Of a stretch of 64,000 bases of DNA, positions 2,931 through 8,330 are shown in pieces (within the stretch, counting starts at the first letter, position 1; the number at the start of each line of letters is the position of its first letter). The stretch spans positions 1,472,001 to 1,536,000 of the forward strand of contig OZ244621.1 in NCBI GenBank assembly GCA_965218425.1, given 5' to 3'. The position numbers and the translations under genes were made by a program. Source of the DNA: an uncultured Candidatus Binatia bacterium. GTDB taxonomy: Bacteria; Desulfobacterota; Binatia; UBA9968; CAXXLF01. Under the pieces are notes generated by a model that saw only the letters and a program-made list of their open reading frames with translations, was not told where the DNA came from and searched no databases.

Positions 2931-2970
2931 TGCCTAATGCATAGGCAGCATGGCGCATAAACTTTAAGCA
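2931..2970. promoter_or_regulatory. Tandem palindromic enhancer-like sites upstream of sigma-54 promoter 1
   Basis: TGCCTA-ATGCA-TAGGCA (2931-2947) and CGCATA-AACTT-TAAGCA (2954-2970). Confidence 0.7.
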
Positions 2971-3078
2971 ATCATCTCTAGTCTCATAGTCAACCCGTTC
3001 TTCGCCAACGGCCGGATTTTTATCCGCCAGCCGTATGTATGGCATGTGTAATTAACCAGCCGGAACGGTTTGGCTACA

Positions 3079-3094
3079 TGGCATCAAACTTGCT
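3079..3094 (+). promoter_or_regulatory. sigma-54 (-24/-12) promoter of the ANTAR regulator gene
   Basis: TGGCATCAAACTTGCT = GG-N10-GC. Confidence 0.8.
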
Positions 3095-3147
3095 CTGCCA
3101 GCATACTCGTCGGTTAGACCCGTTTTAAATTTGCAAGCCAAGGAGTA

Positions 3148-3747
3148 ATGGCAAAGAGCCATCACATGAAACGACGTGTTCTGTTAATAGACGACCATGC
3201 ACCTTCAAGGTCTCTACTGGCCCAGGCTTTGAACGAAGAAGGGTTCGAAATTGTGGGTGAGGGGTCAAGCGGCCTGTCTTTTTCGTTCTTGGCTAAAGCC
3301 ACGAAACCCGACGCCATCCTGATGGCGGTGGGTCTTGCCGATATGGATGGAATCAGCGCGGCTCGAAAAATTATGGAAGAGAACCCTTTCCCTGTCATAT
3401 TGCTTACCAGCCATTACGAGGAAGAGACCGTTGAGCGAGCCAAAGCGGCAGGGGTAATGGCCTATCTCATTAAACCATTAAGACAAGAGGAACTCCGTCC
3501 CAGCATCGAGATGGCAACATCACGCTACGACGAGTTCCTGTCCCTTAGAAGACAAAATGAAGGCTTGAAGAAAACCTTAGAGGCTCGCAAGGATATCGAT
3601 CGGGCGAAGGGCATCTTGATGAAAAGCCGGGGACTTTCCGAGGCAGAGGCCTTTGCCCTAATTCAGAAGCGGAGCATGGATACCCGCAAGTCCATGGCCG
3701 AAATCGCTCGAGCACTGGTTCTGACAGAGGACATGGCTAGAGACTAG
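3148..3747 (+). CDS. REC-ANTAR RNA-binding antiterminator (NasT/GnfR/PdtaR-like)
   Basis: Receiver domain (IDDH, LLTSH, YLIKP), coiled coil, ANTAR motif RKDIDRAKGILM...LSEAEAF..IQKRSMD. Confidence 0.93.
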   Translation: MAKSHHMKRRVLLIDDHAPSRSLLAQALNEEGFEIVGEGSSGLSFSFLAKATKPDAILMAVGLADMDGISAARKIMEENPFPVILLTSHYEEETVERAKAAGVMAYLIKPLRQEELRPSIEMATSRYDEFLSLRRQNEGLKKTLEARKDIDRAKGILMKSRGLSEAEAFALIQKRSMDTRKSMAEIARALVLTEDMARD

Positions 3748-3809
3748 GGAGTCTCTCATCGTGATTGAAACTGCGTCACAATCAGTCGGAGGGAATTAAT
3801 TTCAAGAAA

Positions 3810-3845
3810 CGCCTAACGATTAGGCAAGCCGTTAAAAAATAGGCA
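3810..3845. promoter_or_regulatory. Tandem palindromic enhancer-like sites upstream of sigma-54 promoter 2
   Basis: CGCCTA-ACGAT-TAGGCA (3810-3826) and CCGTTA-AAAAA-TAGGCA (3829-3845); same motif as at 2931. Confidence 0.7.
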
Positions 3846-3908
3846 GCAATTGAAAGACGCTTACAGTTAAAACTCCCACCGTTGCTAGCTTTTGGTCATC
3901 CGGAGTTA

Positions 3909-3924
3909 TGGCATAACGATTGCA
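3909..3924 (+). promoter_or_regulatory. sigma-54 (-24/-12) promoter of the cyn operon
   Basis: TGGCATAACGATTGCA = GG-N10-GC. Confidence 0.85.
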
Positions 3925-5572: not shown

Positions 5573-5585
5573 GTGTAGTGTAATC

Positions 5586-6485
5586 ATGGCCCAGGGGATC
5601 CTATCGAGGCTCAAAGGGAGAACCAATTCCCTGCTCATCTCTTTCCTGGTAGCGAGTGTGTTCCTGCTCGTGTGGCACCTCGCTACCGTCCGTCCCTCCT
5701 TCAACGCCAAAGGCCTGACGGAGGAGCAGTTAACGACCATGGAGTTTAACGGCGACATCATCCGTAATGCGGATGGGGGCTATGTATACAACCCGGACAA
5801 GGCCAAGGGGCTCGCAGGACCATGGGACGTGGTGAAGAAAGTCGGGGAGGAGTTGTCCAACCCCTTTCACAAGAAGGGAACCAACGATCACGGTATCGGC
5901 CACTTGGTCCGCTACACCGTGACTCGATTTGCCATAGGTTTTCTATCGGCATCGGTACTGGCAGTACTGCTCGGAATGGTGATCGGTCTGTCACCAACCT
6001 TATTCCAGGCGCTGAATCCCTTCATCCAGCTGCTCAAACCCATATCCCCATTGGCTTGGATGCCACTGCTGTTATACACCGTGCAGAACCCAACCATGAC
6101 GGCGGTTCTTGTTGTATTCATGGCGTCGTTGTGGCCCACCGTGGCCAACACCGCCTTCGGCGTGAACTCCATACGAAAGGACTATCTGCAGGTGGCCAGC
6201 CTGCTGCAGTTGTCCTGGTTCCGGCGGGTCATAACCATTGTTCTTCCGGCGACAGCCCCAGCCATTGTGGCCGGGCTTCGCATCTCCTTCGGGAGCGCTT
6301 TGGTTGCCGTCGTCCCTGCCGAGATGCTCTTGGGAGAGCTAGGGGTGGGTTACTTGAGTTGGATTGAATGGAACAACCTGGACATCTCCGGGGTAATGTT
6401 TACGATTCTGGTGGTTGGTGTTGTTGGAGTCATTCTCGACAGTGGTTTTAACCGGCTAGCCAAACTCGTCACCTACGCGGAGTAA
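5586..6485 (+). CDS. cynB: NrtB-family ABC permease
   Basis: LKPISPLAWMPL, GLRISFG...VPAEML; hydrophobic segments. Confidence 0.85.
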   Translation: MAQGILSRLKGRTNSLLISFLVASVFLLVWHLATVRPSFNAKGLTEEQLTTMEFNGDIIRNADGGYVYNPDKAKGLAGPWDVVKKVGEELSNPFHKKGTNDHGIGHLVRYTVTRFAIGFLSASVLAVLLGMVIGLSPTLFQALNPFIQLLKPISPLAWMPLLLYTVQNPTMTAVLVVFMASLWPTVANTAFGVNSIRKDYLQVASLLQLSWFRRVITIVLPATAPAIVAGLRISFGSALVAVVPAEMLLGELGVGYLSWIEWNNLDISGVMFTILVVGVVGVILDSGFNRLAKLVTYAE

Positions 6486-6493
6486 CAATACCC

Positions 6494-7321
6494 ATGAGTG
6501 AATTTCTCGAAATCGATCACGTTAGCAAGTTCTTTTTCAACCCCAACGGGTCCGCCACTTGGTCCGGTCGGCTGGAATCCTTTTGGGTTCTCAAAGACGT
6601 AAACCTGAATATTGCGCGAGGGGAATTCATCACCACCATTGGCCACTCCGGGTGCGGCAAGAGCACTCTGCTCAATATCATGGCAGGCTTCGAAAAGGCC
6701 TCGGGTGGGGGCATCATCCTCGACGGTAGGGAGGTCAACGACCCGGGTCTGGACCGCATGGTGGTGTTCCAGAGTTTCGCCCTTATGCCGTGGTTGACGG
6801 CCCAGGACAACATAAAGATCGCGGTAAAAGCATCTCGCCCTACATGGGGCAAAGCCCAAATTTTTGAGCACACCCAAAAATACATCGACATGATGGGTCT
6901 GAAGGGAGCTGAGACCAAGAAGCCGGCTTTTCTTTCGGGTGGCATGCGCCAGCGCGTGGGGCTGGCACGTGCCTTCGCCGTAGAGCCGAAGATTCTTCTG
7001 CTGGACGAGCCCTTCGCACAAATTGACGCCCTTACCCGGGGGGTCATTCAAGAAGAGCTGGTCCGCATGTGGGATGCAACTCAGAATACCATCTTCATGG
7101 TGACGCACGACGTGGACGAGGCCATTTTGCTCTCGGACCGAATCGCCCTAATGACAAACAGTCCCGAGGCTCATATTGCCGAATGTATTGAGGTCAATAT
7201 CCCGAGGCCCCGCACCCGGGAGTCCATTATTGACATGCCCGAGTATACGAAGCTACGAAACCATGTGCTCCGTTTCCTCATTAGCGGCTCACAGAACGGT
7301 CGCGCAAAAAATCTAAACTAG
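6494..7321 (+). CDS. cynD: NrtD-family ABC ATPase
   Basis: GHSGCGKST, LSGGMRQR, LLLDEPF, VTHDVDEA. Confidence 0.88.
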   Translation: MSEFLEIDHVSKFFFNPNGSATWSGRLESFWVLKDVNLNIARGEFITTIGHSGCGKSTLLNIMAGFEKASGGGIILDGREVNDPGLDRMVVFQSFALMPWLTAQDNIKIAVKASRPTWGKAQIFEHTQKYIDMMGLKGAETKKPAFLSGGMRQRVGLARAFAVEPKILLLDEPFAQIDALTRGVIQEELVRMWDATQNTIFMVTHDVDEAILLSDRIALMTNSPEAHIAECIEVNIPRPRTRESIIDMPEYTKLRNHVLRFLISGSQNGRAKNLN

Positions 7322-7389
7322 CGTAAACCCGATGAACCAGCCACAAAGTATTGAGCTAATTTTTATTTTATTATTAGGAGGTATTCGTT

Positions 7390-7863
7390 ATGGCATTACA
7401 AAAACTCATGACTAGGGAGGAGGCCAAGGATACAATTTTGGCGGCCAAGAAACAGAAGGGGGTTACCTTTCAAGAAATCGCCAAGGCCGTTGGCAGGGAT
7501 AAGGTCTGGGTTACAGCAGCCCTGATGGGTCAGGCGAGTATGGATAAGGCGGAGGCGGAAAAGGCTATCGGCGTCTTGGGCCGGGGTGAGGGCACGGCCT
7601 CGGAGGTTTCTTCGGCCCTGCAGGAAATGCCCATGAAAGGCTCCCTCGACAACACTGTCCCTGTGGATCCTCTTATCTACCGGTTCCACGAAATCACACA
7701 AGTCTATGGTACCTCAATGAAGACTATCATACACGAGATGTTCGGCGACGGTATTATGAGCGCCATTGACTTTGAAATCGATATCCAGAAGAAGGAAGAC
7801 CCCAAAGGAGACCGGGTGGTTGTGAGTTACAGCGGCAAGTTCCTACCCTATAGGAAGTGGTGA
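7390..7863 (+). CDS. cynS: Cyanase (cyanate hydratase)
   Basis: PVDPLIYRFHE, EMFGDGIMSAIDF, GKFLPY. Confidence 0.97.
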   Translation: MALQKLMTREEAKDTILAAKKQKGVTFQEIAKAVGRDKVWVTAALMGQASMDKAEAEKAIGVLGRGEGTASEVSSALQEMPMKGSLDNTVPVDPLIYRFHEITQVYGTSMKTIIHEMFGDGIMSAIDFEIDIQKKEDPKGDRVVVSYSGKFLPYRKW

Positions 7864-7991
7864 CCGTCAGCTCCCATGTTTTCGTCATGTTCCTATGGTC
7901 GAGCCTAACCTGGTCTCCCAAACCATTGGGGGCGGAAATCTAAATCGGTGCGTGTGCCGGATTGACGTACATAAAGCCTGAAGGGTCCTAT

Positions 7992-8330
7992 ATGAAAATG
8001 GTCGAGGCTGTTATCAAACCGTTTAAACTTGACGAGGTGAAAAAAGCTCTCATCACAGCCGCCATTCAAGGGATGACGGTGACCGAAGTCAAAGGGTTTG
8101 GACGACAGAAGGGACACTCGGAGCTGTATCGTGGCACCGAATACGCAGTGGATTTTATCCCCAAGATCAAGATTCAAGTTCTCATAACGGATGAGAACGC
8201 TCCAACGATCCTGGACGTTATCGCTGAAGCTGCCCGTACGGGTAAGACCGGAGACGGAAAGATTTCAGTTTCTGATGTAGAGGATGCTATTCGCATCCGC
8301 ACCGGGGAGAAGGGACCCAGTGCTATCTGA
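7992..8330 (+). CDS. glnB: P-II nitrogen regulatory protein
   Basis: [43 protein letters not shown]. Confidence 0.92.

Follow-up and report, generated by a model that had tools for sequence, protein, structure and literature searches.

A cyanate gene cluster under predicted sigma-54 and ANTAR control, beside an Asp-less receiver protein, in an uncultured Binatia bacterium

The cyn locus and its control elements

The 64,000-nucleotide stretch of DNA analysed here, which we call the window, belongs to an uncultured Candidatus Binatia bacterium whose genome is a single contig of 4.46 Mb, 97% complete. It holds the cyanate-utilisation genes cynABDS and, upstream of them, a gene for a protein that joins a receiver (REC) domain to an ANTAR domain. 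An initial annotation had proposed that two sigma-54 promoters drive the REC-ANTAR gene and the cyn genes, the latter through a leader with ANTAR hairpins and a terminator, and that one activator turns on both. Four public DNA runs, drawn from three studies, give contigs with identical letters across the region, and its features are therefore not assembly errors. The elements of the module are listed below in the order in which they occur.

2931..2970, plus strand: paired activator sites of the GnfM/NtrC type (TGC-N11-GCA type) at the ANTAR promoter, recognised by pair scores and by the form of predicted GnfM sites
3079..3093, plus strand: sigma-54 -24/-12 motif 1, predicted transcription start ~3105
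3166..3747, plus strand: gene for the Asp-less REC-ANTAR protein, 193 amino acids (an ATG at 3148 would give 199)
3810..3845, plus strand: paired activator sites at the cyn promoter, recognised by pair scores and beginning 99 nucleotides before the sigma-54 motif
3909..3923, plus strand: sigma-54 -24/-12 motif 2, predicted transcription start ~3935
3934..4010, plus strand: cassette A, decayed, 20.9 bits with the covariance model, its second-best match in the genome
4102..4123, plus strand: cassette B hairpin P1b, hexaloop AUCGUU (A1, G4, closing C-G)
4129..4142, plus strand: cassette B hairpin P2b, hexaloop AAAGGC, 5 nucleotides after P1b and overlapping the terminator
4136..4170, plus strand: intrinsic terminator (z -3.1), mutually exclusive with P2b
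4202..5572, plus strand: cynA, NrtA/CmpA-family binding protein (NMT1_2), twin-arginine motif ARRQFLK at residue 61
5586..6485, plus strand: cynB, ABC permease (BPD_transp_1, domain match)
6494..7321, plus strand: cynD, ABC ATPase (ABC_tran, domain match)
7390..7863, plus strand: cynS, cyanase (TIGR00673, 176 bits against a cut-off of 113)

The domain matches bear out the annotation of cynABDS, an NrtA-family ABC transporter followed by cyanase. Among 80 homologous loci fetched, cynS stands behind cynA in all 55 that have room to show it. This linkage, together with missing orthologues of nitrite and nitrate assimilation, suggests that the transporter carries cyanate: NarK has no match in the genome, and the NirA and NasA matches reach only 28-33%. 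Because these orthologues are missing, the cyn genes are the only target found in this genome.

Both promoter motifs are present as proposed, with TGGC-N7-TTGC beginning at 3079 and 3909, and each is preceded by a pair of palindromes, GCCTA-N5-TAGGC being exact at 2932 and 3811 and followed by an imperfect second site at 2954 and 3829. The palindrome is no signal by itself, as its 6 exact copies in the genome compare with 4.8 expected. The genome has 215 strict sigma-54 motifs, and for each we scored paired 17-mers in the upstream sequence. The four best belong to the amtB-glnA-glnB operon (21), the motifs at 3079 (21) and 3909 (19) and a third motif at 8469 (17), and a pair score of at least 17 is reached at 3 of 2000 random positions. 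The scoring pattern derives from the site at 2931, so that this site's own score is circular; the amtB-glnA match is independent. That operon (G000 C1:2733972-2737400, minus strand) has a sigma-54 motif and the best-scoring site pair, without an ANTAR cassette. The sites share the form of the GnfM sites predicted in Geobacter (Table S4 of PMC2995071). We examined 23 motif matches located upstream of cynA or downstream of the ANTAR gene in relatives and in the window: the pair starts 97-101 nucleotides ahead of the motif in 12 of them and at 175 nucleotides in four, and three are hairpin sequences that mimic the motif. The genome has rpoN and only two full sigma-54 activators. One of these, at C1:2482682-2484145, adjoins a histidine kinase gene, and its best family is NtrC at 544.7 bits against a cut-off of 558.6 (one of two scanned).

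The cynA leader contains two ANTAR cassettes in series. In cassette A, hairpin P1a is intact (3947-3964, loop AAUGAA), whereas the second hairpin and most of the terminator are degenerate; the cassette is intact in the closest relative, L048. We rejected the idea that the hairpins at 3947 and 4129 form one long-range element, as each belongs to its own cassette. Cassette B bears out the proposed leader. It has the features of an EutV-type attenuator, namely hexaloops with A1 and G4, C-G closure, a P2 hairpin overlapping the terminator and a 5-nucleotide linker, within the range of 5-12 nucleotides given for such elements (PMC3369931). P2b also matches the GnfR site GGCAANGGCGCC. In folding calculations the terminator reaches -24.5 kcal/mol, compared with -16.3 kcal/mol when both hexaloop hairpins are enforced; the terminator is the default fold, and at an advantage of ~8 kcal/mol the leader is likely off by default. 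A rule-based scan of the whole genome found the dual-hexaloop-plus-terminator element once, as cassette B; the covariance model, whose training set includes cassette B, recovers it too, ahead of cassette A.

Conservation of the leader was assessed in 23 aligned leaders (alignment A1, which omits 4 of 27 motif matches: L028, L087, one match in L147 and cassette A of L048). Across P1 and P2, 85% of cells pair and 8 of 11 pairs show changes on both sides; the covariation score is reached by 0 of 500 shuffles, although kinship among the leaders inflates such scores. The closing C-G pair occurs in 22/23 and 23/23 rows for the two hairpins. No riboswitch or other Rfam family matched the leader up to E=5, and no ANTAR element was found in the REC-ANTAR gene's own leader. 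The spacer between the cassettes may be the remnant of a small leader gene, which is suggestive only: equally good shuffles number 7/200 for the window, 2/200 for L048 and 1/200 for L108, and 21/200 for L004 and 116/200 for L049.

The Asp-less REC-ANTAR protein and the search for a partner

The protein encoded at 3166..3747 is the only ANTAR match in the genome, and its REC and ANTAR domains, in that order, agree with the initial annotation. Its close homologues carry the label Candidatus Binatia or Binatota in their source records. The sole ANTAR protein gene and the sole intact dual-hexaloop terminator in 4.46 Mb adjoin each other. Of nine residues that bind RNA in EutV (PMC8934654), five are identical in the window protein, three are conservatively replaced and one differs. 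The predicted model gives a template modelling (TM) score of 0.82 against extended EutV (PDB 6wsh) and 0.62 against compact Rv1626, a weak indication that its shape is closer to the former.

A difference from kinase-driven regulators lies in the receiver. Ala54 (codon GCG at 3325) aligns with the phospho-Asp of EutV and Rv1626, and all 120 nearest homologues lack the aspartate, with Ala in 108 and Ser in 12. Asp9, Asp10, His11, Thr81, His83 and Lys103 are nevertheless kept in at least 119 of the 120. The protein is thus an Asp-less receiver (ALR) in the sense of a receiver fold without its phospho-Asp. In a midpoint-rooted tree of 45 of the 89 aligned sequences, one branch (support 95/94) splits 35 Asp-less rows from Binatia, NC10 and Rokubacteria from 10 rows with Asp; among distant full-length representatives (<48% identity), Asp is present in 103 of 113. 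The window protein is a member of this Asp-less clade, in which Binatia, NC10 and Rokubacteria are represented.

We found neither a histidine kinase gene at the clade loci nor a NasS-grade gene in the ANTAR-bearing genomes searched. None of 36 clade loci has a histidine kinase gene (the count excludes a duplicate, a truncated locus and three further loci whose ANTAR proteins are of other types). By tblastn the genome has no NasS-grade NrtA paralogue, CynA being the sole strong match to the NMT1_2 profile (285 bits; all others at most 33), and four ANTAR-bearing relatives, of five genomes searched, also lack one. In other orders of the class the situation differs. Their NasT-like proteins, 27-37% identical to the window protein, keep the Asp in all 14 loci examined of 16 matches, and in 12 of these 14 a NasS-like gene stands directly behind. 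Two different ANTAR systems therefore serve nitrogen control within one class. The canonical nasT-nasS pairs (L181-L193) often have an upstream sigma-54 motif.

Three other neighbours were tried as obligatory partners and rejected: the genome has no orthologue of the class-I glutamine amidotransferase, the small leader protein or the STAS protein. The amidotransferase gene shares an island with the ANTAR gene in L132, L135-L138, L142, L143, L063, L070 and L071, directly upstream of it in all except L132; its catalytic Cys motif reads GIGLG rather than GICLG in L136 and L137. In many Binatia, the gene that immediately follows the ANTAR cassette codes for the small protein, with a STAS gene often coming next; the protein is acidic, 51-72 amino acids long and without a Pfam family (L131:989-1147, plus strand; L134:4597-4785, minus strand; and 11 more in alignment A7, conserved across the 13 loci), and is a candidate feedback regulator. 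A diverged subgroup (L068, L145, L146 and L147) has its Asp-less ANTAR genes immediately downstream of a Ser/Thr kinase gene, accompanied on visual inspection by a PP2C-like gene, an arrangement that hints at control by partner switching. In L065 (8147-8946), the ANTAR gene sits behind one cassette and before another, which would give positive autoregulation.

Distribution and surroundings of the module

An ANTAR orthologue occurs in 20 of 60 relatives. Strong matches to the RNA model (E <1e-6) occur in 15 of these 20 and in 2 of the other 40, several of the matching genomes having supplied the model. The module was not found in any of four genomes of the same family. In relatives, the clade protein lies in a nitrogen island with glnB, amtB, glnA, the amidotransferase, a porin, nirA, narK or nrtABCD and nasA, sometimes with a urea transporter or cynABDS as well. 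There, this protein and its RNA element precede nirA, nitrate transporters, porins or a small unknown gene, and cynS is present in only 11 of the 36 clade loci. The wiring is thus not specific to cyanate. A cassette lies directly upstream of cynA in 11 of the 80 cynA loci, 5 of the 11 being outside model building; the full two-promoter layout is not universal.

Four points go beyond the earlier description: the loss of the phospho-Asp, the serial arrangement of two cassettes, the weak case for glnB as an operon member and the third sigma-54 motif at 8469. The last lies behind a P-II gene that had been counted as the end of the operon.

7992..8330, plus strand: glnB-type P-II gene (P-II domain), a resident neighbour whose operon membership is unproven
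8401..8483, plus strand: third activator-site pair with a sigma-54 motif beginning at 8469, behind glnB, no gene behind

We reject glnB as a member of the module. It stands directly behind cynS in none of the 80 cynA loci, and a family relative without the ANTAR or cyn genes has a glnB, 85% identical, ~1 kb behind the same tRNA-Leu. On this comparative evidence it is a resident gene that predates the module. The tRNA-Leu(CAA) gene is at 1174-1260 of the window, followed by gene fragments at 1300-2890, among them a frameshifted Rieske oxygenase gene (1773-2887). The ANTAR-cyn module lies between this tRNA gene and glnB, where the family relative G002 has a different short gene. In the segment 8401-8640 (plus strand), the third motif and its sites are combined with degenerate hexaloop-like repeats and face a truncated GAF-PAS frame (8445-9311, minus strand). 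The segment is absent from G002, and the Rfam narK RNA matches it weakly at 8470-8536 (E=1, below its cut-off). It is likely the remnant of a lost nitrogen gene or, less probably, a decoy RNA. Among 17 open reading frames scanned in 1-16500 we found no LysR or carbonic-anhydrase family match, a scan that included no dedicated search for cynR or cynT.

Models for opening the attenuator

Taken together, motif scores, covariation and conservation support the proposal that one NtrC/GnfM-like activator acts at both promoters and that ANTAR-mediated read-through leads into cynABDS, and we are highly confident that sigma-54 and ANTAR regulation together govern the cyn genes. For the step that opens the attenuator, we lean modestly towards the adjacent Asp-less protein doing so after building up to a sufficient level, with neither a kinase nor a sensor partner. 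Because its phosphorylation site is absent and no sensor partner was found, the protein likely works by merely being made. Under nitrogen shortage, the activator encoded at C1:2482682-2484145 would bind the paired sites and fire both promoters. Transcripts of the cyn genes would halt at 4136-4170 until there is enough ANTAR protein to dimerise, and the dimer, by holding P1b and P2b, would allow read-through. Transporter and cyanase would then be made, and cyanase would release ammonia. Such a circuit would be a coherent feed-forward delay, or persistence filter, on nitrogen starvation and would not sense cyanate. Two precedents support phosphorylation-independent action by analogy: in Paracoccus, NasT-dependent expression becomes constitutive once nasS is lost (PMC3795266), and EutV is described as dimerising at high concentration even when unphosphorylated (PMC8934654).

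Several observations count against this model. The decay around the module (the frameshifted Rieske gene, the orphan promoter and cassette A) is one. Two genomes, G029 and G049, have strong RNA elements with no ANTAR gene detected, both assemblies being fragmented. The covariation test is partly circular: the leaders were gathered via the P2 motif and the terminator, so only P1 tests covariation independently. A strict sigma-54 motif of its own precedes the ANTAR gene in only 9 of 36 loci, with a CGGCAC variant in two more, and in many loci the gene is the last of a glnA/amtB operon or shares a transcript with its target. Since few loci give the gene its own motif, the two-promoter layout is not general; of the 12 loci with both the ANTAR gene and cynA, only the window, L048 and the near-identical pair L129 and L130 show it in full. 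Receivers usually lose activity when the Asp is changed to Ala. Moreover, Asp9, Asp10, Thr81 and Lys103 are conserved in at least 90% of the alignment, the second acid being kept by only 29% of Asp-less receivers (PMC4395418), and because these residues are conserved in a protein without the phospho-Asp, the pocket may still bind a signal. The genome also has 12 HATPase matches. As gnfK does not adjoin gnfR in Geobacter, the absence of a neighbouring kinase proves little alone.

The receiver pocket might itself be the input, with a nitrogen anion or metabolite sensed at the place of the former phospho-Asp. The retained acids, His11, Thr81, His83 and Lys103, in a pocket where no phosphate is acceptable, and the failure to find a partner gene are consistent with this idea, as is the binding of c-di-GMP (cyclic diguanylate) between REC and ANTAR that is described for P. 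putida NasT (PMC10783516); an attenuator that adds no new signal would also be of limited use. However, Asp-less receivers often retain the first acid and the Lys for structure (PMC4395418), and the nitrite, nitrate, cyanate, urea and porin targets in relatives suit a general nitrogen signal better than a substrate, and we consider a ligand input unlikely, if worth keeping in mind. We are equally doubtful of its evolutionary extension, in which Binatia, NC10 and Rokubacteria would run nitrite, nitrate, cyanate and urea scavenging by a one-component, ligand-sensing REC-ANTAR protein descended from a kinase-driven, GnfR-like ancestor. Somewhat less probable still is the same wiring with a protein partner that gates the antiterminator, as AmiC does AmiR or NasS does NasT. 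Candidates are P-II, the class-I glutamine amidotransferase and the 51-72 amino acid protein first behind cassette A. Of 52 clustered loci, duplicates counted, 12 have the amidotransferase cluster and 16 have P-II; the small protein, which matches no Pfam family, shows conservation across 13 aligned loci, and pseudo-receiver ANTAR proteins are described as partner-regulated (PMC3369931). Yet the genome has no orthologue of the small or STAS protein, its nearest amidotransferase is only 37% identical and encoded elsewhere, the neighbouring glnB predates the module, and no single partner gene is common to all loci.

A GnfK-like kinase elsewhere in the genome could activate the protein via another residue, as in Geobacter, where gnfK is likewise unlinked to gnfR. 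The RNA site and the activator sites match those of Geobacter, Ser occupies the site in 12 of 120 homologues and a Ser/Thr kinase flanks the diverged subgroup. Ala cannot be phosphorylated, however, and no kinase gene lies behind any of the four promoters with the highest activator-site scores; we judge a kinase very improbable. Scarcely more probable is that the module is a decaying relic, with the protein inactive and the cyn genes silent or expressed by leak through the terminator. The decayed cassette, the orphan third promoter, the frameshifted Rieske gene and the truncated GAF-PAS gene would fit, as would the module's absence from the four same-family genomes. Against this, all five reading frames and cassette B are intact, and the substitution is common to the entire clade, in which both the ANTAR domain and its RNA targets show conservation.

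Comparison with known systems shows which parts of the proposed circuit are familiar. In Geobacter sulfurreducens, GnfL/GnfM and GnfK/GnfR form a system in which, as proposed here, a sigma-54 activator with TGC-N11-GCA-type site pairs drives a REC-ANTAR gene and its targets, and the GnfR target site CAGGCAANGGCGCC, which P2b matches, overlaps the terminator (PMC2995071). GnfR is described as binding RNA only when phosphorylated by GnfK (PMC2995071), whereas the window protein has no phospho-Asp and is therefore not a GnfR-type, kinase-driven regulator. The analogy drawn in the initial annotation thus holds for the activator and RNA sites and fails for the protein. The targets also differ, being cyanate genes here and nitrite, nitrate and urea genes in relatives; the main text of PMC2995071 does not contain the string 'cyan'. 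Paracoccus denitrificans and Pseudomonas putida have a feed-forward loop of the same shape, in which nasT and the nas operon both depend on NtrC for activation. NasT antiterminates at a two-hexaloop leader as proposed here, but is held by the nitrate sensor NasS (PMC3795266, PMC5424462, PMC10783516), for which the window genome has no NasS-grade gene. The nitrate and nitrite assimilation targets of NasS/NasT are likewise missing from this genome, whereas relatives have nirA, narK or nasA beside the protein.

Enterococcus faecalis EutV/EutW resembles the window system in domain order, fold, RNA-binding residues (5/9 identical), A1/G4 hexaloops and linker range, although EutV is switched via phosphorylation of Asp54 and controls ethanolamine genes (PMC3369931, PMC8934654); the supplements of PMC3369931 contain neither 'cyan' nor 'cyn'. 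Pseudomonas aeruginosa AmiR also joins a receiver without phospho-Asp to an ANTAR domain, and ALR is the name of the class, but AmiR is only 16% identical in a structural match, retains less of the pocket and is restrained by AmiC, whereas the window protein keeps both N-terminal acids, the Thr and the Lys (PMC4395418). The cynFABDS genes of Pseudomonas pseudoalcaligenes CECT5344 likewise place cynABDS behind a putative sigma-54 promoter and are ammonium-repressed, but use a dedicated activator, CynF, and are induced by cyanate (PMC6627978); no divergent activator gene precedes cynA here, and 'antitermin' is absent from the main text of that paper. In a literature search that took in few subscription papers, we found no description of this wiring for cyanate or cyanase genes and nothing on regulation for Binatota and cyanate. 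Loops that couple an activator to an antiterminator are published for Geobacter and Paracoccus, as is control of cynABDS by sigma-54 for Pseudomonas CynF; what appears new is a probably phosphorylation-independent, partner-free version of the ANTAR loop. The anatomy is real and well supported; the RNA switch and the loop are familiar, and the clade of antiterminators without Asp and apparently without partner is the notable part.

The module gives widespread uncultured lineages a likely nitrogen regulator together with its RNA target motif, and adds cyanate, a nitrogen source that is actively cycled, to the range of ANTAR antitermination. Because it is unusually small, with one protein and one target in a 4.46-Mb genome, it should be transferable to a laboratory host. 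It offers a direct way to ask how a receiver works when it has no phosphorylation site, no kinase and no NasS partner. Gated by expression alone, the module would be a natural delay circuit; gated by a ligand, it would be a new type of sensor.

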